Shown: positions 1-10,568 of the stretch, in pieces
Layout: every line of letters begins with the position of its first letter
Position numbering within the stretch: position 1 is the stretch's first letter
Source of the DNA: an uncultured Anaerolineaceae bacterium
Lineage (GTDB): Bacteria; Chloroflexota; Anaerolineae; 4572-78
NCBI GenBank assembly: GCA_964480075.1
Contig: CAYZQQ010000001.1
Coordinates: forward strand, 1-42,733
Length of the DNA: 42,733 nucleotides
Reading direction: 5' to 3'
Made by a program: the position numbers and the translations under genes
Notes under the pieces: model-generated
What the model was told of the DNA's origin: nothing
Seen by the model: only the letters and a program-made list of their open reading frames with translations
Databases searched by the model: none

Positions 1-84
1 CGTATCGTACTCAACCGCTCTATTTTTCGCCAATTTTTGGCGAAGGTATTGTAACTTCAAACCATTTATCACATCGCCAGCGCC

Positions 85-771
85 TTGGCGGAAGCCCGCA
101 AACCCGAAGCGTGTGCCTCGTGCCACCTCGGCCCAGACCATCCCGACATCGAAATCTACAATAACACCAAACACGGTCAAATTTACGCGACAGAAGGCGA
201 TGAATGGGAATGGGACAGCGCCCCCGATGCCTGGGAACCCGGCGACTACCGCGCCCCCACCTGCGCCGTCTGCCATATGAGCGGTATCGGCGAGTTGAAA
301 ACCACGCACAATGTTTCTGACCGGTTGTATTGGAACTTGTGGGCAAAATCGTCCAAAAAACGCGACTCAAACGACCCGATGAATGCGTTGTTTGGCAATG
401 GGGATGAAGGCCGTGCAAAAATGAAACTCGTTTGCAATGCCTGCCATAGCAGCCTGCACACCGACAATTATTTCGAACAGGGTGACCGTGCCGTTCAACT
501 TTACAACGTGGAATATTATGCTCCGGCTCTGAAAATGCTGAACGACCTGAAAGATAAAGGTCTGCTGAAAGATAATCCGTGGGATGATGAATTCCAAAAA
601 GTATATTACCATCTGTGGCACCATGAAGGTCGCCGCGCACGTCAGGGTGCAATGATGGGTGCGCCGGATTATGCCCACTGGCATGGGTTCTTTGAACTCC
701 AGCAAGATTTGTATAAATTGCAATCCATCTACAATTACCGCATCGAAAACAACGCCATCGAAACGCCATAA
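85..771 (+). CDS. Multihaem cytochrome c, hydroxylamine-oxidoreductase (HAO)/octahaem-family C-terminal fragment; probably truncated or a pseudogene
   Basis: The 228-aa ORF has three CXXCH motifs (CASCH, CAVCH, CNACH) and the C-terminal YYHLWHHEGRRARQG...HWHGFFE block typical of HAO-like proteins. It has no signal peptide. The only start is TTG with no SD, and an in-frame TAA lies at 52-54 just upstream. Confidence 0.6.
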   Translation: MAEARKPEACASCHLGPDHPDIEIYNNTKHGQIYATEGDEWEWDSAPDAWEPGDYRAPTCAVCHMSGIGELKTTHNVSDRLYWNLWAKSSKKRDSNDPMNALFGNGDEGRAKMKLVCNACHSSLHTDNYFEQGDRAVQLYNVEYYAPALKMLNDLKDKGLLKDNPWDDEFQKVYYHLWHHEGRRARQGAMMGAPDYAHWHGFFELQQDLYKLQSIYNYRIENNAIETP

Positions 772-833: not shown

Positions 834-3680
834 TTACTGCCCGTTCACCTTTTCCAACCGCACCGCATTCGCCTTAAATTCCGGTATCTTGGCGATGGGG
901 TCGAGCTTCTCGTCGTGGGTCAGCATGTTGGCGGGCGATTCCCGCCAGTGGAACGACAGGAACACTACCCCCGGCGTCACTCGCTCGCCGACACGCGCCT
1001 GCGTCGTCACTTCGCCGCGACGGCTGACCAGTTTCACCATTTCACCATCGGCGATACCCAGCGACTCCGCATCGGAGCGATTCACTTCCACATACCCCGC
1101 AGGAACTTTCCAGTCCAGCCCTTCGCTTTTGCGAGTCAGCGTGCCGGTGTGGTAGTGGAACAGCACCCGCCCGGTGGTGAGAATGAACGGGTATTCGTCA
1201 TCCGGGTTTTCATACGGCAGATTTGGCACCGCCGGATAGAATCGCCCCACCCCGCGTGAGAATTTTCCAATGTGTAAAATCGGCGTGCCGAGATGGTCTG
1301 CGGCGGGACAGGGCCAGGCAAGCCGCTCGGTTCGCAAGCGTTGATGGGTCACACCGCCGTAAATCGGCGTGACATGTCGCGCTTCTTCTAAAATTTCCGC
1401 CGTGGAATTGAAATCCCAGTAGCCTTCGTCGGCGCGTGTGCGTCCCAATTTTTGGTCAACCGCCTTGGCAATTGCCGCCGTGATTTGCCAATCGGGTTTT
1501 GCCTGTCCGGGCGGCGGCACAATTTGATGAATCAACTGCACACGGCGTTCACTGTTGGTGAAGGTGCCATCTTTTTCCATTGAAACGGCGGCAGGCAACA
1601 CGATGTGCGCCAGTTGGGCGGTTTCGGTTAAAAATACATCCTGCAACACGAAGAAATCGAGCGCGCGCATGGCGTGCTCGGCATGATGCAGGTTCGGGTC
1701 GGAGAGAAGCGGATTTTCGCCCATAATATACAACGCATGCACATCTCCGTCCGCCATGGCGTGCGAGGCTTCCACCACCGTGTAGCCGACTTCGCCGGGC
1801 AGGTCGTCCATGCCCCACTTTTGGGCGACGGTTTTACGTGCGGCGGCATCGGTGACTTTTTGATACCCCGGCAGCACATTCGGCAGTCCGCCGAGGTCGC
1901 ACGCGCCCTGCACGTTTGCCTGCCCGCGCAGCGGATTCACCCCGCTGGACGGTTTGCCGATTTGCCCGCACAGCATCGAAAGACTTGCCAGCATGTGTAC
2001 CATATCGGTACCGTTGCTGCGCTGGGTGATACCCATTGCATACAGAATGGTGCTGTGTCCGCGCTCGTCATCGAAAATGGATTGCCCCGATTGCCGCTCG
2101 CCGAAAGCGTACAGCCGCGCCGCCAATTCGATTTTCTCGGCGGGAATGCCCGTTTCCAGCGCGGCAACTTCGGGGGTCATGTTCGCCACACTCTCCTTAA
2201 ATTCCTCAAAATTCTCGGTGCGCAATTCGATGAAATCCCAATCCGCCCACCCTTCGCGGATGATGACATGCGCCATCGCCATAAAAATAAAGATGTCCTG
2301 CCCCGGTTTCGGTTGCAGGTGCAGCGTGGCATGGTCGGTCATGCTGATTTTGCGCGGGTCAACCACTACCAGACTCGCGCCCTTTTTCACCGCGCGGATA
2401 ACTTCATAACTCAACACGGGATGGCTTTCGCCGGTGTTGGAACCGGTAATCAAAATGCAGTCCGCATCGGCGATACCGTGGATGGTGTTGGTCATCGCGC
2501 CACTGCCAAAACTCGTCGCCAGACCGGCGACAGTTGAGCTGTGTCACAATCGGGCGCAGTGGTCGATATTGTTGGTACCGACCCCCGCGCGCATAAATTT
2601 CTGAAAGAGATAGTTTTCTTCGTTGGTGCATCGCGCCGATGTTTGGCTGTGTATCGCATCGCCGCCATAATTTTTGATGACCTCCGCCAGTTTGGTGGCA
2701 GTCACATCGATGGCGGTTTCCCAACTGACGGGCACAAACCAGCTCGGGTCGGCTTCGCGCTCCAGCACGGTTTCGGTGGAGATTTGCCACGGCTCATCGG
2801 TGATGCCCAGCTCGTATGCCAAATCTTTGCGCATCAGCGGCTCGGTGAGTCGCCCCGGTTTGTCCACAAAATCCCAGCCGAAACGCCCTTTGACACATAA
2901 AAATTCGCCGTTGACGGTAGTGTCATCATTTTTGGGCGCTTTGGCATAAACAATTTTATCGCCTTTGGTGGCAAATTCCACCGTACAGCCGACACCGCAA
3001 TAACCGCAGACGGTCTTTTTGTGCTCAAATTCAAAATCGCGCCCCTGTCTCAGCCGCGAAACGGGTTGCAGCGCGTTGGTCGGGCAGATTTGCACACAGT
3101 TGCCGCAGAACACACACGACGATTCCGCCAGTGGCACATCAAACGCAGTGGAAATGACCGTCTCGAACCCGCGCTCGCTGAAATGGATGGCGTTCGCGCC
3201 AACAACCTCATCGCACACACGGACGCATTTGCCGCACATGATGCAATATTGATAATCACGCACGTAAAACGGATTGTCGTCAATATATTTCGCTCGCGAG
3301 AGTTCCACCGGGAAGGAACTTTCGGAAATGTTATACTGATATGCATATTTTTGCAGGTCGCAACTGCCGTTTTTATCGCACACCACGCAATCAAGCGGGT
3401 GGTCGGAGATGAACAAATCCATCACATGACGGCGCATATCTTCCACATGTTCGGTTTTGGTATGAACCACCATCCCGTCCTGAACGGTTGTGCCGCAACT
3501 GTGAACCGGATTCGGCATGCCGTCAATTTCCACCACACACATACGGCAACTGCCGCTGGGAATCAGGTCTTTGTGGTGGCACAAATGCGGAATGTCGATG
3601 CCGTGTTCCAGCGCCGCATCGAGCAGCGGCTGTCCGGCTTTGGCTTCAATTTGCTGGTTGTCAATGGTTATTTTTACCAT
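834..3680 (-). CDS. fdhA: Formate dehydrogenase alpha subunit, selenocysteine-containing (948 aa, UGA-Sec at 2546-2544); 2Fe-2S and 4Fe-4S N-terminal domains plus a molybdopterin oxidoreductase domain
   Basis: ORFs 2544..3680 and 834..2495 share one frame and are separated only by TGA. Read-through gives [33 protein letters not shown]. The N-terminus has NuoG-like Cys clusters and the C-terminus a molybdopterin dinucleotide-binding domain. SD is AGAGGTG upstream of the ATG at 3680. Confidence 0.9.
2510..2546 (-). promoter_or_regulatory. UGA-Sec codon plus bacterial SECIS stem-loop
   Basis: mRNA: UGA CAC AGC UC-AACU-GUCGCC-GGUCU-GGCGAC-g-AGUU. There is a 6-bp upper stem (2531-2515) and a 4-bp lower stem with one bulged G. 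The GGUCU apical loop lies in the same A-G-L codon register as in E. coli fdhF. Confidence 0.8.
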
Positions 3681-3767
3681 AGATGCACCTCTATTGGTTT
3701 TATGGATTCTGGATAATTCCCCATTGCTTGCGACAAATTCGGAATGACAAATTATTTCCTTGAAACA

Positions 3768-4121
3768 TTGTCATTCCCGCGCAGGCGGGAATCCACATTA
3801 GATTATTTTTTCGTACAAATCATCCCAATTAGGGTTCATTGCCTCAATGAGATTAATTTTCCACTGTCTATTCCATTTTTTCAATTGTTTTTCACGAGTC
3901 AGCGCAACGTTGATTTCAGGTGTTTCTTCAAAATAGACCAGCTGATGAACCTGATATTTTTTGGAAAGGCTCTCTGCCAAGTCATTTTTATGTTCGTAAA
4001 TACGCTTTACCAAATTATTGGTTACACCGATGTACAATGTGCCGTTTTTCTTGCTGGCTAAAATGTAAACAAAATAAGTGTTCATTTTTTTTCTTGGATT
4101 CCCGCCTTCGCGGGAATGACA
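3768..4121 (-). mobile_element. AT-rich GIY-YIG cassette bounded by inverted 27-nt palindromic repeats, inserted between fdhB and fdhA
   Basis: tgtcattcccgcgcaggcgggaatcca (3768-3794) matches the reverse complement of tggattcccgccttcgcgggaatgaca (4095-4121), differing by one base in the loop. The interior is about 35% G+C by hand count, against about 58% in a 60-nt sample of fdhB. Confidence 0.6.
3798..4085 (-). CDS. GIY-YIG nuclease family protein (UPF0213/YhbQ-like), 95 aa
   Basis: MNTYFVYILASKKNGTLYIGVTNNLVKRIYEHK... carries the GIY-YIG signature. I prefer the ATG at 4085, because the ORF-track extension to 4127 reads through the flanking repeat. Confidence 0.85.
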   Translation of the reverse strand: MNTYFVYILASKKNGTLYIGVTNNLVKRIYEHKNDLAESLSKKYQVHQLVYFEETPEINVALTREKQLKKWNRQWKINLIEAMNPNWDDLYEKII

Positions 4122-4123
4122 AA

Positions 4124-5878
4124 TCATAATTTAAATTCATCTGCGAAATTCTTCAGCGCCGATTGCATCGGGATGGCGACAGATTGCCCCAGTCCGCAGA
4201 ACGAAGCGTATTTCAACGTATCTGCCATTTGAGTCAATATGTCCGCATCCGCCGCGCCGATGTTTTCCGCGCGCATGTTGTCCAGCAGTTGGCGGGTGCG
4301 CCGCGTGCCGATGCGACACGGTGTGCATTTGCCGCACGATTCGCTTTCAAAAAAGTGCAGCAACTCGCCGAGCAAATCCACCGGCGACATACTTTCATCG
4401 GCGATGAGAAACGCGCCTGCACCGAGACCGATACCGTGTTCCCGCGCCGAAGCATAATCGATGGGAATATCGAGAAAATCGCGGTTGACGATGGTTCCCG
4501 CCGCGCCGCCGGTCAGTGCCATGTTGAAGGTCGAACCGGCTTTCATCCCGCCGCCAAAATCGTCAATAATTTGGCGCAGGGTCAACCCGAAGGGGGCTTC
4601 AAACAGCCCGGGTTGATTCACATGCCCCAGCAGCGTGTAAAGTTTTGTGCCGGCGCGCCCATCGCCGAGGCTGAGTTCGTTGTACCATTGTGCCCCATTC
4701 CGCAGAATGGCGGGCACGTTGGCAAAAGTTTCCACATTGTTGACAACCGTTGGTTTGTTGCGAAAACCGCTGACGGTGGGATATGGCGGGCGCATGCGCG
4801 GCTCACCGCGCCGCCCTTCCAACGATTCCAGCAGCGCGGTTTCTTCGCCGCAGATGTACGCCCCTGCGCCGCGATGGACGTGAATATGGAACGAAAAATC
4901 GCTGCCGGCGATATGGTCGCCGAGTTTACCGTATGCCATTGCCTGTTCAATGGCGAGTTCCAGCACATCCGCCTGTTCGGCATATTCGCCGCGAATGTAA
5001 ATATAGCCCTCGCGCGCGCCGATGGCATATCCGGCAATCGCCATTCCTCCCAACAGCAGATGGGGATTGCTGTCCATCAGCACGCGGTCTTTGAAAACCA
5101 GCGGCTCGCTTTCATCGGCATTGCAAACGATGTAACGGGTTTCATCGGCGGCTTCGGCGACAAATTTCCATTTCATACCGGTGGGGAAGCCCGCACCGCC
5201 GCGCCCGCGCAGATTCGAGTCGGTCACAATCGTCACCACATCCAGCGGCGAGCGTTCCAGTGCGGCGGTCAAACCCTGATATGCACCGTGCGCCAGCGCG
5301 GTTTCAATGTTGCGCGGGTCGATTTTATCGGTATTTGCCAGCAAAACGCGCGTTTCACCGGGACGGGATTGGGTGTAGGTATGTGGATGTGCGGGGGGAT
5401 TTTCGATGGAAGATTTGAGGTCGGCGGGGTTGAGGGTGATTTGAGCATGGTCATTCACCAGTGCGGCGGGGGCGTGGTCGCACAAGCCGAGACAACTGCT
5501 GCGTTCCACCGTCCACCCCGCACCGAGCGCAGTTTTTAGCGTGGTCATCACATCTCCGGCACAGTGCATCCAACACGCGGGACCATCACACACGCGGATG
5601 ATGTTTTCGGTGGTGGGCTCGGTGTTCAGCATGGTGTAAAAGGTCGATGTGCCATACATATCCGCAAAGGGAACGCCCATCGCGTGCGCGGTATGCGCCA
5701 CCGATTTTCTATCCAGATACCCTTCAGCCTGTTGAAGTTCCACCAGCGCTGGAATGACAGATTCGGCATCGCCGCGATATTTTTTCAACACAGCAGCGAT
5801 CGCCGGGAACGGTGGTTCATTCAATATGTTTCCTTGATAGGTTTGCTTTTGGCGCGATTTTCGGGATCGTTTCGCCAT
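4124..5878 (-). CDS. NAD-linked formate dehydrogenase beta/diaphorase subunit: NuoE-like 2Fe-2S domain fused to a NuoF-like FMN/NADH/4Fe-4S domain
   Basis: The 584-aa ORF has an N-terminal thioredoxin-like 2Fe-2S domain (CDGPAC...CLGLC), GRGGAGFPTG, and ESCGKCTPCR. A strong SD (AAGGAGG) precedes the ATG at 5878. Confidence 0.85.
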   Translation of the reverse strand: MAKRSRKSRQKQTYQGNILNEPPFPAIAAVLKKYRGDAESVIPALVELQQAEGYLDRKSVAHTAHAMGVPFADMYGTSTFYTMLNTEPTTENIIRVCDGPACWMHCAGDVMTTLKTALGAGWTVERSSCLGLCDHAPAALVNDHAQITLNPADLKSSIENPPAHPHTYTQSRPGETRVLLANTDKIDPRNIETALAHGAYQGLTAALERSPLDVVTIVTDSNLRGRGGAGFPTGMKWKFVAEAADETRYIVCNADESEPLVFKDRVLMDSNPHLLLGGMAIAGYAIGAREGYIYIRGEYAEQADVLELAIEQAMAYGKLGDHIAGSDFSFHIHVHRGAGAYICGEETALLESLEGRRGEPRMRPPYPTVSGFRNKPTVVNNVETFANVPAILRNGAQWYNELSLGDGRAGTKLYTLLGHVNQPGLFEAPFGLTLRQIIDDFGGGMKAGSTFNMALTGGAAGTIVNRDFLDIPIDYASAREHGIGLGAGAFLIADESMSPVDLLGELLHFFESESCGKCTPCRIGTRRTRQLLDNMRAENIGAADADILTQMADTLKYASFCGLGQSVAIPMQSALKNFADEFKL

Positions 5879-6420: not shown

Positions 6421-8760
6421 ATGACCGCGCTCATTCGCTTCGTTATCGCATGGTTTTTGGGCATTATTTTGGCGCGATGGTTCTCACTGTCACTGCCGAT
6501 ATTGCTGCCGCTGACCCTGTTTGCCGGAGCGGCGATTGTCCTGCTGCGACACAATACCCGTCAGCGCACCGCCGCCGTACTTTTGCTGACGGTGTTGCTC
6601 GGCGCAGGACGGTTCACGCTGGCACAACCCCACATCTCGCCCGACCATATCGCGTTTTATGACGATACCGGCTACCACACCTTCACCGGCGTCATCGCCG
6701 CTGAACAGGATGTGCGCGACACCCACACCCTGTATCGTCTGGCTGCCCAAACCATCACCACTGCCGATGGCATTTCGCATCCGGTACACGGGCTGATGTT
6801 GTTGAACGCAGCGCAGTATCCTGAATTTCATTTTGGTGACCGGGTGGAAATTCGCGCCCAGCCGGAAACACCGCCCGTTTTTGAAGATTTCTCCTATCAG
6901 GATTATCTCGCGCGTCAGGGCATCCTTTCGTATGCGCGCCGTCCGCGCATTACTCTGCTGGCTCCCCAAAAACAATTTTCGCTGCGCGCCGAAATCATAA
7001 CCATAAAGCACCGTGCGTCTGTTGCCATCAATCATATTTTACCCGAACCGGAAGCTTCGCTGCTAAACGGTATTCTGCTCGGCATTCGCGGCGGCATTCC
7101 CACCGATTTGTACGAGCAATTTAATGCTACCGGCACCAGCCATATCATCGTTATTTCCGGCAGTAATATTTCGCTGGTGGTCGCATTGCTGCTATTAGTG
7201 GGACAACGACTCATTGGGCGAAAACGGGCTGTATGGCTGGCTATTGGCGGAGTGACGCTGTACACGGTGATGGTCGGCGCCGACCCGGCGGTGGTTCGCG
7301 CCGCGGTGATGGGCGGATTGTATGTTTGGTCAATGCAGTTGGGACGTCCCAACGCCGTGCGGAACACGCTGTTCGCCGCCGGATGGCTCATGGCACTGCT
7401 GAATCCACTGGTGCTGTGGGATGTAGGTTTTCAGCTCAGTTTTATGGCAACGCTCGGATTGGTGGCGCTCGTTCCCACATTAGAAAGGCTCATCGGGCGA
7501 TATTTGTCGCCATACGCCATTCTCAATGAAGCGTTGCTGGTGACGCTGGCGGCACAAATTGCCACAGCGCCGCTCATTCTGTACCAATTCGGGCGATTAA
7601 GTTTGGTCAGTTTGCTGGCAAACTTTTTGATTGTCCCCGTGCAACCCCTGGTGATGTTTGCCGGCGCGGCGGCAACGGCGGTCGGTATGATTTCACTGCC
7701 GCTGGGAACCGTGTTCAGCTGGACGGTATGGCTGCCGCTGGCATGGACGGTTGCGGTGGTGCGCTGGGCGGCGAGAATGCACGGCGCCCAAATTACGCTG
7801 GCGCACGCATCGTGGTGGGTGATGTTGTGGCTGTACGCCATCATTGCCGCCACCGTTAGTTGGCTTCAAGCTCACTCAAAACGCCGATTTTCGAGTCGCG
7901 GTGGAAACATCCGCCCGCATCCGGTTGCGCTGGCAGCCGTGGCAATCACACTGCTGGCAGTCGTCCTTTCGCCGGTTTTACACACACTCCCGGATGGAAA
8001 CCTGCATGTGGCATTTTTAGATGTGGGACAGGGGGATGCCGTGCTGATAACCACCCCGCACGGCGAACAAATGCTGGTGGATGGCGGACCTTCGGCAGTA
8101 ACATTGAGCCAACGGCTGGGTGAAGAAATGCCGTTTTGGGACCATTCACTCGATGTGATGGTGAGCACCCATCCCGACAGCGACCATCTGACCGGATTGG
8201 TGGACACGGTACAACGGCTGGCAGTAGATTCGGTGCTGGTCAGCGATATGCACGGCAACTCGGCGCTGGCAAAAGCGTGGCGACGCACGCTGGCATTGGG
8301 GCACTCCCGCGTCATCACTGCCGATGCCGGGATGCGCATTCAGTTGGATGATGGTGTTTTAGTGCGCGTGCTGAACCCATCTGCCGCCAGCGTGGCGTTT
8401 CCCGACCGCAACAATCATTCGGTGACCACGGTCATTCAGTTGGGACATGTTCGTTTTTTGCTCTCCGGCGATTTGGAGGCTCCCGGCGAAGCCGCGGTGC
8501 TAAAATCCGGGCAGGATGTGCGCGCTACCGTGCTGAAAAGCCCGCATCACGGCAGTAACACCGGCTCCAGCCCCGCGTTTTTGGATGCCGTATCGCCGCA
8601 AATGGTGGTCATTTCGGTGGGAGCAGACAATCGTTTTGGGCATCCCGCCCCATCCACGCTGGAACGATATGCCGAGCGGGGAATTTCGGTATTGCGCACC
8701 GACCAGTTGGGTACGGTAGAACTGGTTACAGACGGGGCTCGGTTGTGGATGGAACGATAA
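6421..8760 (+). CDS. comEC: DNA internalization-related competence protein ComEC/Rec2 (polytopic membrane domain plus C-terminal metallo-beta-lactamase domain)
   Basis: The 779-aa ORF has many TM helices and the competence domain (GTSHIIVISGSNI). The C-terminal MBL motif is FLDVGQGDA...HPDSDH...SPHHGS. Confidence 0.85.
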   Translation: MTALIRFVIAWFLGIILARWFSLSLPILLPLTLFAGAAIVLLRHNTRQRTAAVLLLTVLLGAGRFTLAQPHISPDHIAFYDDTGYHTFTGVIAAEQDVRDTHTLYRLAAQTITTADGISHPVHGLMLLNAAQYPEFHFGDRVEIRAQPETPPVFEDFSYQDYLARQGILSYARRPRITLLAPQKQFSLRAEIITIKHRASVAINHILPEPEASLLNGILLGIRGGIPTDLYEQFNATGTSHIIVISGSNISLVVALLLLVGQRLIGRKRAVWLAIGGVTLYTVMVGADPAVVRAAVMGGLYVWSMQLGRPNAVRNTLFAAGWLMALLNPLVLWDVGFQLSFMATLGLVALVPTLERLIGRYLSPYAILNEALLVTLAAQIATAPLILYQFGRLSLVSLLANFLIVPVQPLVMFAGAAATAVGMISLPLGTVFSWTVWLPLAWTVAVVRWAARMHGAQITLAHASWWVMLWLYAIIAATVSWLQAHSKRRFSSRGGNIRPHPVALAAVAITLLAVVLSPVLHTLPDGNLHVAFLDVGQGDAVLITTPHGEQMLVDGGPSAVTLSQRLGEEMPFWDHSLDVMVSTHPDSDHLTGLVDTVQRLAVDSVLVSDMHGNSALAKAWRRTLALGHSRVITADAGMRIQLDDGVLVRVLNPSAASVAFPDRNNHSVTTVIQLGHVRFLLSGDLEAPGEAAVLKSGQDVRATVLKSPHHGSNTGSSPAFLDAVSPQMVVISVGADNRFGHPAPSTLERYAERGISVLRTDQLGTVELVTDGARLWMER

Positions 8761-8781
8761 CGGGGTGACTTGGGCACGCAA

Positions 8782-8811
8782 TTGGGCAGATTCACCTATT
8801 ATGGCTATAAT
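8782..8811 (+). promoter_or_regulatory. Candidate sigma70-type promoter
   Basis: TTGGGC, an 18-nt spacer, then a perfect TATAAT (8806-8811). If this promoter is used, the TTG at 8811 cannot be the start codon, which supports the ATG at 8850. Confidence 0.3.
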
Positions 8812-8849
8812 TGAGTTTCGCAGAATATCATTTTTCGCAGGATGCAAGT

Positions 8850-10568
8850 ATGAATCAACGAATGTTAGAACCCAAAGGCATGATACGCGAAACAACACCG
8901 CGCTCAACCGTGCAAATCACATTTGATGACGGGCGGGTGTTTGAAGGTCCCAAAGGCTCGATGATAGAGGATTTTATCCGTCCCGCCTTTCCCAAAAATA
9001 ACCCGCCGGTTATTGCATGCATGGTCAATAAACAGATGCGAGAATTAACGTACCATGCCTACACCGATTTGGAAGTGACGCCCATCATGCTGGCAGACAG
9101 CGACGGGCTGCGCATTTATCGCCGCTCGCTATCGCTGCTGCTCATCGCTGCGGCAGATGAATTGTTCCCCGGCATCCAAATTATCATCGATTACGGATTA
9201 AATTTCGGCGCATTTTATTTTGAGGTCAATCACCATCCGCCCCTTTCCGGCGATGATTTGTCTCGATTGCGTCACCGTATGCGAGAGTTGGTGGACGCAG
9301 ATTTACCCATTCACAAAGAGCGCGCGCCCCTGCCGGACGTTATCACCTATTTTAGAGAGAAGGGCTGGGACGACAAAGTTCGGCTGATGGAAACGCGCCG
9401 CAAAGATTATTTAACGCTGTATGCGCTTAACGGCATAAAAGATTACATGCAGGGGTATATGGTTCCGTCCACCGGCTATCTCAGTTCGTTTGACGTTGCC
9501 GTGTATGATGACGGCTATATTCTGCAATATCCCCGCTCAAAATCGCACAATCGCTTGCGCCCGCCGGTGGATTATCCCAAATTGGTCAGTGTTTTCAACG
9601 AAACGCGAGACTGGATGGAAAAGCTGGATGTGTATGATGTGGGCAAGCTGAACACCGTCGCCCGCACCGAGAAAATCCGCGAGCTGATTCTGGTGTCGGA
9701 GGCATTGCACGAACAGCGGGTGGCGCAGATTGCCACGCTCATCGCCAGCATTGGGCATATTCGGATGGTTACTATTGCGGGACCATCATCATCGGGGAAA
9801 ACCACATTTTCCAAACGATTGGCGATTCAATTGCGGTCTCATGGGTTAAAACTGATGACCATCGGCTTGGATGATTTTATTGTCAACAGAGAAGATACGC
9901 CCCTTGATGCGGATGGCGATTTCGATTATGAATCCATCAAAGCGCTTGATTTAGACCTTTTCAATTCGGTGATGCTGAAATTGATTAACGGTCAATCGGT
10001 AACCATGCCAAAATACAATTTTCTCACCGGGCAGCGCGAATGGGGCGAAACACTACAGGTGAGCAGCGAATACATTTTTATTGTGGAGGGAATCCACGGG
10101 CTGAACCCGGAGTTGGTCACGCAGATTCCCGTCGACCAGATTTTTCGGGTGTATGTTTCGGCGCTGACGCAGTTAAATCTGGACAATCACAATCGAGTTG
10201 CCACCACCGACACGCGGCTCATCCGGCGCATTGTACGCGATGCCACGTATCGCGGATACACCGCCAGCGATACCATTTTGCGCTGGCCCAAAGTTCGGCG
10301 CGGAGAACATACGTGGATTTTCCCATTTCAGGAAAACGCCGATATTTTGTTCAATTCGGCGCTGTTGTACGAAATGCTGGTACTCAAATCGCTGGCGGAA
10401 CCGTTGCTTTTGCAGGTGGAGCCGGGCAAACCCGCCCACCGCGAGGCGAAACGGTTGCTCTCATTTTTACAATGGTTCGATACGCTTAAAAGCACCGACT
10501 TCATCCCCGACAATTCCATTTTGCGCGAATTTATCGGCGGCTCCATTTTGCGTGATTATATGCCATAA
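8850..10568 (+). CDS. Uridine kinase/nucleoside kinase family protein with an N-terminal TGS/ThrRS-like extension
   Basis: P-loop IAGPSSSGKTTFSKRL, a uridine-kinase-like RLIRRIVRDATYRG block, and a roughly 300-aa N-terminal TGS-like region. The ATG at 8850 has an AGGA SD; the ORF-track start at 8811 is TTG. Confidence 0.7.
   Translation: MNQRMLEPKGMIRETTPRSTVQITFDDGRVFEGPKGSMIEDFIRPAFPKNNPPVIACMVNKQMRELTYHAYTDLEVTPIMLADSDGLRIYRRSLSLLLIAAADELFPGIQIIIDYGLNFGAFYFEVNHHPPLSGDDLSRLRHRMRELVDADLPIHKERAPLPDVITYFREKGWDDKVRLMETRRKDYLTLYALNGIKDYMQGYMVPSTGYLSSFDVAVYDDGYILQYPRSKSHNRLRPPVDYPKLVSVFNETRDWMEKLDVYDVGKLNTVARTEKIRELILVSEALHEQRVAQIATLIASIGHIRMVTIAGPSSSGKTTFSKRLAIQLRSHGLKLMTIGLDDFIVNREDTPLDADGDFDYESIKALDLDLFNSVMLKLINGQSVTMPKYNFLTGQREWGETLQVSSEYIFIVEGIHGLNPELVTQIPVDQIFRVYVSALTQLNLDNHNRVATTDTRLIRRIVRDATYRGYTASDTILRWPKVRRGEHTWIFPFQENADILFNSALLYEMLVLKSLAEPLLLQVEPGKPAHREAKRLLSFLQWFDTLKSTDFIPDNSILREFIGGSILRDYMP

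Follow-up and report, generated by a model that had tools for sequence, protein, structure and literature searches.

The 42,733-nt stretch analyzed here (the window) is contig CAYZQQ010000001.1 of an uncultured Anaerolineaceae bacterium. Two adjacent open reading frames (ORFs) on its minus strand, 2544..3680(-) and 834..2495(-), each resemble a part of the catalytic subunit of a formate dehydrogenase (FDH). The question raised by this locus was whether they are two genes, or a single fdhA gene in which an in-frame UGA is decoded as selenocysteine (Sec), as a first-pass annotation had proposed. The results indicated that the two annotated genes are almost certainly one FDH catalytic subunit, with the UGA encoding Sec. 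In its full form, which we hold with high confidence, the proposal is that 834..3680(-) is the Sec-type fdhA of an NAD(P)-linked FdhAB in an uncultured Anaerolineae-type member of the Chloroflexi, and that UGA 379 is decoded as Sec by way of a Sec insertion sequence (SECIS) hairpin.

Translation of 3680..834(-) gave a single frame of 949 codons with one internal stop, the TGA at 2546..2544. Both ORFs were in this frame and the TGA was its sole interruption, as first proposed, and the read-through peptide quoted earlier around the UGA matched the translation. The fdhA gene (834..3680(-)) would thus be a single gene of 948 codons for the alpha subunit of an NAD(P)-linked FDH, closed by a TAA at 836..834. 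The in-frame UGA (2544..2546(-)) is codon 379, the predicted Sec codon and Mo/W ligand. It was the only TGA in the window with in-frame open stretches of more than 150 codons on both sides.

The ORF lister split the gene into proteins of 378 amino acids (aa; 2544..3680(-)) and 553 aa (834..2495(-)). This split, which the first-pass annotation had anticipated, was also found in public protein collections, where the two halves are stored separately (P0121, 378 aa; P0109, 553 aa). A separate 6,465-bp JGI metagenome contig carried the identical fdhA sequence and the same split. The 90%-identity cluster of the N-terminal fragment contained 16 members from NCBI, JGI, ENA and Logan assemblies, nearly all of them 378-380 aa long. 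This indicated that the same truncation recurs widely.

The read-through protein (948 aa) matched the NCBIfam model for FDH alpha subunits, TIGR01591, with 776.6 bits, above the curated cut-off of 666.25. The match was one stretch (residues 223-941; positions 1-671 of the 672 in the model) that crossed the UGA. In the Pfam analysis, Fer2_4, NADH-G_4Fe-4S_3 and Fer4 (residues 1-204) were followed by Molybdop_Fe4S4, Molybdopterin (277-739) and Molydop_binding, with codon 379 inside the Molybdopterin domain. These domains predict a protein composed of an N-terminal NuoG-like 2Fe-2S/4Fe-4S module and a catalytic domain that holds Mo or W in a bis(pyranopterin guanine dinucleotide) cofactor (Mo/W-bisPGD). 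The top PDB matches were the alpha subunits of NAD-dependent FDHs (7vw6/7e5z and 6tg9; E about 1e-193, residues 2-947). E. coli FdhH (1aa6) was matched with E = 1e-147.

To the E. coli FdhF sequence taken from NC_000913.3, FdhA was 41.5% identical over 679 aligned positions. In this alignment, UGA codon 379 fell exactly on Sec140 of FdhH, the context of which is CCARV-U-HGPSVAGL. FdhA residues H380, R585 and K264 were the conserved counterparts of H141, R333 and K44. A UGA at the Sec/Cys ligand, followed by the conserved His (the U-H motif) and accompanied by the catalytic Arg, is the arrangement of a Sec-type FdhA. In the survey of the 120 best database homologues, 119 were full-length (55-65% identity, mostly from Chloroflexi metagenome-assembled genomes, MAGs), and 118 of these had Cys at the position equivalent to the UGA (DHCARL-C-H). 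These results agreed with the earlier placement of the UGA at the site where Sec or Cys ligates Mo or W.

Searches at the DNA level provided 12 loci from GTDB species-representative genomes and three from JGI metagenomes. TGA was present at the same codon in all 12 Chloroflexi relatives that covered the site (among them L002, L003, L004, L005, L006, L007, L009, L013, L015, L016 and L017). These relatives came from eight GTDB species-representative MAGs and from JGI metagenomes, and their FdhA proteins were 68-94% identical to that of the window. Two Spirochaetaceae homologues (about 57% identity) had TGT at the site. Cys homologues and TGA homologues in other organisms, among the latter a more distant copy in locus L018, thus made up a Cys/Sec pair.

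A hairpin was found 8 nt after the UGA. As folded here (2510..2535(-)), it consists of a lower stem AACU/AGUU, a bulged G at 2514, an upper stem GUCGCC/GGCGAC and a GGUCU loop at 2525..2521. Numbered from the U of the UGA, the upper stem occupies positions 16-21 and 27-32 and the loop positions 22-26; in the window only, the lower stem occupies 12-15 and 34-37, with the bulged G at 33. The hairpin was part of the minimum free energy (MFE) fold of 2550..2490(-), which had an energy of -25.6 kcal/mol for 61 nt. Compared with shuffled sequences, this fold had a z of -2.57, and 2 of 200 shuffles folded as well.

The model of bacterial SECIS elements quoted in PMC13188914 specifies a loop of 3-9 nt, an upper stem of 4-16 bp, at least one G in the first two loop positions, a distance of 16-37 nt between UGA and loop, and an MFE of -7.5 kcal/mol or lower. 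The apical loop of the window hairpin is 5 nt and its upper stem 6 bp. The loop opens with GGU, in keeping with the pattern of G followed by G or U, and its first G is 18 nt from the UGA. The 33-nt hairpin segment had an MFE of -13.1 kcal/mol. All four constraints (size, loop sequence, spacing and energy) therefore held. The hairpin also fits a general description of bacterial SECIS hairpins (PMC4605307), with stems of 6-8 bp and a conserved G in the loop some 20 nt past the UGA.

A permissive Rfam scan produced one match, to RF01989 SECIS_3 (46.1 bits; E = 1.1e-9 over 301 nt), with UGA and hairpin in register. It extended over 2491..2549(-) and positions 1-59 of the 59 in the model, and covered the UGA, the lower helix and the apical hairpin. 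Each check suggested with the first-pass annotation that could be run, this one included, favored it. When other loci were scanned, SECIS_3 matched all those of the TGA type (32.6-43.7 bits), whereas L008, a Cys-type locus, gave no match.

In the SECIS of E. coli fdhF, GGUCUG (Gly-Leu codons) is at positions 22-27 from the U of the UGA, as it is in the window. G23 and U24 coincide in the two, being in the apical loop and equally far from the UGA in both. SelB contacts these two bases, which are important for its binding.

The hairpin is within a conserved coding region, and its conservation was compared with that of the rest of the gene in a codon alignment of 12 TGA-type genes (roughly 2.85 kb). 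In columns with a conserved amino acid, the mean pairwise codon identity was 0.62, and only 17% of these columns had the same codon in all sequences. Codons +5 to +9 (GTC GCC GGT CTG GCG), on the other hand, were identical in 12 of 12, the only such case among 508 five-codon windows. The hairpin core GUCGCCGGUCUGGCGAC (2515..2531(-); the 6-bp upper stem plus the 5-nt GGUCU loop) was, with 17 nt, the longest invariant nucleotide run in the alignment. The next two longest runs also adjoined the UGA.

The Cys-type genes of L008 and L011 encode the same peptide, HSSTVAGLA, but with other codons (GTG GCG GGT CTG GCC and GTG GCG GGC CTG GCA, respectively), and no hairpin was formed. In the more distant TGA-type gene of L018 (site codon at 8124; 39-49% identity), the stem is GUCACC/GGUGAC around the loop GGUCU. 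This corresponds to a two-sided change from G-C to A-U at pair 19-29. The change altered two amino acids (Ala to Thr and Ala to Val) and the pairing was retained. The locus offers a clean example of a SECIS, in which a 17-nt core is invariant while synonymous sites elsewhere are saturated.

The six codons on the 5' side of the UGA (GAC CAC TGC GCC CGR TTG; 2564..2547(-), -18 to -1 nt) were also nearly invariant in the 12 TGA-type genes, and included an invariant run of 14 nt. Together with the UGA, they paired with 2499..2494 in the MFE fold to form an extended lower helix. These codons may be a context selected for recoding efficiency.

Several observations weighed against Sec decoding by this hairpin. 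The first concerned the machinery. ARAGORN, run on the window and on 12 related loci, detected no tRNA of any kind, tRNA(Sec) included. NCBIfam scans of 38 proteins (37 window ORFs and the read-through FdhA) gave no SelA, SelB or SelD, and tblastn with E. coli SelA, SelB and SelD gave no matches in the window or in any of the fetched loci. Thus, selA, selB, selC and selD were absent from the 42.7-kb contig and from the flanks of 17 related loci.

The second concerned the hairpin itself. At gathering thresholds, the Rfam scan of the window gave no match, the 46.1 bits for SECIS_3 being below the gathering score of 63. The window element therefore resembles the family and is not filed as a curated member. 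In addition, the SECIS_3 score partly reflects similarity of coding sequence, and the consensus of the model clearly derives from FDH-alpha coding sequence. The loop of the model is GUC closed by A-U; the closing position in the window is G/U. Covariation was thin: in the pair-count test, 82% of the cells were paired, there was one compensatory pair, and 11 of 500 shuffles reached the observed score. The modest outcome is attributable to the upper stem, which scarcely varies.

The hairpin of the first-pass annotation included the lower AACU/AGUU stem. This stem folded in the MFE structure of the window, but it was unpaired in most relatives and so is not conserved. This leaves the upper stem and the loop as the conserved functional core. 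The description of the element as fdhF-like also stood only in part. The loop sequence and the register of G23/U24 agreed with E. coli fdhF, but the bulged U (U17/U18) on the 5' side of the fdhF-type upper stem was absent. The E. coli upper stem, as folded here, has this bulge and a 4-nt loop closed by A-U, whereas the window hairpin has a perfect 6-bp upper stem, a 5-nt loop, and a G on the 3' side below the stem as its sole bulge.

As for the machinery, the conservation pattern and the literature on Anaerolineales suggest that the Sec-decoding trait, with selA, selB, selC and selD, would be present elsewhere in the genome. In single-cell genomes of Anaerolineales from the Okinawa Trough subsurface, FDHs are annotated with an active-site Sec, and Sec-specific elongation factors (SelB) are present; An-B22 has both (PMC4959059). 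Chloroflexi are known to have tRNA(Sec) species (PMC5389517). Among bacterial selenoproteins, FdhA is the most widespread, and it has evolved in parallel with the Sec trait (PMC1794560).

A UGA followed by a SECIS-like hairpin might also be read as Cys, by an opal-suppressor tRNA(Cys) that mimics tRNA(Sec) (selC*-type) acting with a SelB paralogue; the hairpin would be needed here too. Systems of this kind (selC* tRNA(Cys)UCA with selB*) have been described in Deltaproteobacteria (PMC5389517). Cys is functional at the equivalent site in most homologues, and the window sequence does not tell Sec insertion from Cys insertion. However, Cys recoding by selC*/selB* has been reported only in Syntrophobacterales and Desulfobacterales (PMC5389517), and related Anaerolineales are reported to have an ordinary SelB together with Sec-annotated FDH (PMC4959059). 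All the data have a simpler explanation in canonical Sec decoding. Insertion of Cys is thus very unlikely, although it is the one alternative compatible with the sequence data. If true, it would extend SECIS-dependent Cys insertion to Chloroflexi; so far, this has been proposed only for some Deltaproteobacteria.

The TGA might instead have arisen from a Cys codon (TGC or TGT), by nonsense mutation or through an error in sequencing or assembly, which would make fdhA a pseudogene or a mis-sequenced gene. A change from TGY to TGA takes one base, and one-off stops do occur in such data. In L015, a metagenome contig otherwise 93% identical, fdhA has a private in-frame TAA at codon 321 (about 3756..3758), where all other sequences have Glu. 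In contrast with the conserved TGA, this TAA probably reflects an error in sequencing or a nonsense mutation of recent date. One of the copies in L018 has TGG at the site and a frameshifted C-terminus.

The TGA of the window did not behave in this way. The same TGA was present in 12 other genes from independent assemblies and species, at synonymous divergence (dS) above 1, and also in the independent JGI contig of identical sequence. The ratio of nonsynonymous to synonymous divergence (dN/dS, Nei-Gojobori) was 0.08-0.20 upstream and 0.11-0.20 downstream of the UGA; dS between clades was 1.1-1.4, where synonymous sites are near saturation. The equally low ratio downstream at this divergence showed that the downstream half is translated and that the TGA is old. 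Purifying selection is thus equal on the two halves, and the TGA has outlasted synonymous divergence close to saturation, which excludes an error in sequencing or a recent nonsense mutation. An error or mutation would, moreover, need to strike the one catalytic codon among 948, next to a selected hairpin. We consider this explanation very unlikely.

The two proteins of 378 and 553 aa listed by ORF callers and public databases would be expected if translation stopped at the UGA and started independently at the ATG at 2495, to give a naturally split FDH. Such a break would interrupt the Pfam Molybdopterin domain at the very residue that ligates the metal, which would be lost. The 17 codons between the UGA and this ATG had been described at first as ordinary molybdopterin-domain sequence, and they proved to be so: they are conserved protein sequence (dN 0-0.06), and 11 of the 17 residues are identical to E. 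coli FdhH. The Met at the presumed start, Met396, is an internal conserved residue (GSGAMTN) in full-length homologues. The ATG at 2495 lacks a Shine-Dalgarno motif, whereas a Shine-Dalgarno-like AGAGG precedes the fdhA ATG at 3680 and AGGAGG precedes the start of the neighboring fdhB. The relatives, checked for one versus two polypeptides, kept the TGA within one continuous conserved frame. A natural split is thus extremely improbable.

Reassignment of UGA as a sense codon throughout the genome (genetic code 4 or 25, with no special recoding), which is known from some uncultured bacteria, is effectively refuted, as TGA is the terminator of 12 of the 25 family-supported ORFs in the window and no other gene has an in-frame TGA between long open stretches. 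Since TGA is a normal stop here, the in-frame TGA of fdhA needs site-specific recoding.

The identity of the enzyme was supported by the adjacent gene. fdhB (4124..5878(-)) is upstream of fdhA in the same orientation and encodes a fused NuoE-like and NuoF-like diaphorase subunit with 2Fe-2S, flavin mononucleotide (FMN)/NAD(P)H-binding and 4Fe-4S parts. The profile matches were to the NuoF family TIGR01959 (E = 7e-145; residues 181-583) and to NuoE (E = 2e-25; residues 26-160), and the Pfam domains were 2Fe-2S_thioredx, Complex1_51K, SLBB and NADH_4Fe-4S. In every relative having the upstream flank, an fdhB homologue was found directly 5' of fdhA. A NuoG-like N-terminal module on FdhA and an adjacent NuoE+NuoF fusion are the features of NAD(P)-linked enzymes of the FdhAB/FdsABG type. 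The fused NuoE-NuoF product therefore points to an NAD(P)-linked FdhAB. By these matches, fdhA and fdhB would encode an FdhAB-type cytoplasmic NAD(P)-linked formate dehydrogenase/CO2 reductase.

Decoding of UGA 379 as Sec would follow the steps established for bacteria. With the ribosome at the UGA, SelB would bind the hairpin 12-33 nt downstream by means of its C-terminal winged-helix domains. The element bound would be the conserved core, GUCGCC/GGCGAC around GGUCU, with G23/U24 exposed in the loop; the conservation at the nucleotide level and the one compensatory change are consistent with such binding. SelB would deliver Sec-tRNA(Sec) to the A site, in competition with release factor 2 (RF2), and translation would proceed through the remaining 569 codons. 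The selenium so incorporated, in Sec379, would ligate the Mo or W of the bis-pyranopterin cofactor beside H380 and R585. Electrons would travel along the Fe-S chain in FdhA and reach FdhB at its FMN/NAD(P) site.

A published counterpart is in An-B22, an Anaerolineales single-cell amplified genome. It has an NAD(P)-dependent FdhAB with an active-site Sec, which was likened to the Sec-containing NADP-dependent FdhAB of Moorella thermoacetica (PMC5736913). The enzymes of An-B22 and M. thermoacetica (Moth_2312-2314) are heterodimeric cytoplasmic FDHs, in which the alpha subunit has 2Fe-2S/4Fe-4S clusters, molybdopterin and Sec, and the beta subunit is NuoF-like (PMC5736913, PMC4959059). Judged by these published descriptions, the window FdhAB shares their architecture and gene pair. 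Its beta subunit is a NuoE-NuoF fusion; in the 70% clade (L004-L006, L009 and L013), the NuoE-like and NuoF-like parts were matched separately. The SECIS of M. thermoacetica fdhA, as seen in co-crystals with SelB, reportedly has a GGUCU loop and a 6-bp G/C-rich stem. A full-text literature search for the hairpin sequence GCCGGUCUGGC, made as a check on the Moorella SECIS, gave no match.

Other FDHs resembled the window protein in part. E. coli FdhF has the same catalytic module, with the UGA followed by CAC in both genes. Unlike FdhA of the window, it has no NuoG-like N-terminal Fe-S module and no NuoEF partner, and it acts in formate hydrogenlyase. FdsA of Rhodobacter capsulatus (6tg9) and FoDH1 of Methylobacterium extorquens (7vw6) share both the NuoG-like N-terminus and the catalytic domain. 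Their PDB entries carry no Sec label from the depositors, unlike the Desulfovibrio entries in the same match list, and we take the metal ligand in both to be Cys.

Sec-type FdhA genes with a bacterial SECIS are of a well-known kind, and gene callers routinely divide them in two. For marine Anaerolineales, Sec-type FdhAB has been published before (PMC4959059, PMC5736913), and the understanding of Sec decoding is unchanged by the present case. Its use is as an annotation correction, since public databases store the gene, like at least 15 of its near relatives, as two truncated proteins. With the split annotation, metabolic reconstructions of Anaerolineae from marine sediment and the subsurface would overlook or misinterpret a complete NAD(P)-linked formate dehydrogenase/CO2 reductase, and likewise the presumed dependence of these organisms on selenium.

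Additional FDH-alpha genes were found in some of the related loci. In L009 and L013 (Caldilineaceae/Anaerolineae MAG loci), a second, Cys-type (TGC) FDH-alpha paralogue was present about 10 kb upstream of the TGA-type gene (about 892..2884 in L009; about 1360..3447 in L013). Extra NuoF-like and NuoG-like genes separated the paralogues. A single locus can therefore hold a Sec and a Cys isoenzyme side by side.

L018 (Logan contig ERR14788038) contained two tandem FDH modules, 2547..5201 (site codon at 3708) and 6906..9836 (site codon at 8124, the TGA-type gene described above). The first, 59% identical to the window gene, has TGG (Trp) at the Sec/Cys position and a divergent, apparently frameshifted C-terminus. 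It retained a hairpin (GUCACC/GGUGGC around GGUCU, with one U.G pair) that matched Rfam SECIS_3. Either decay of a Sec gene or faulty assembly may account for this copy. Among the protein homologues, P0120 was the single one with W at the site; this was suspected to be a TGA translated under code 4, but its DNA showed a real TGG.

Between fdhB and fdhA of the window is an ORF of 109 aa (3798..4127(-)) with a GIY-YIG domain (Pfam PF01541; E = 4e-17). Its ATG overlaps the fdhB stop (ATGA). Among the close relatives, it was found in L003 only (66% identity); in L002, L007, L015 and L016, fdhB is followed directly by fdhA. The ORF looks like a sporadic insertion into the operon, and is possibly mobile.

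On the other side of fdhA, and convergent with it, is a multi-haem cytochrome ORF (85..771(+)) with three CxxCH motifs and a weak hydrazine-dehydrogenase-like match. The copy on the JGI contig matched Pfam PF13447. The ORF 20..769(-), which overlaps the cytochrome ORF, had no family match. Synteny of the cytochrome with fdhA was present in L002, L004-L006, L010, L012 and L015, with 78-89% identity of the cytochrome. Between clades, the cytochrome was more conserved than FdhA (about 71%), which hints at a functional link between the two.

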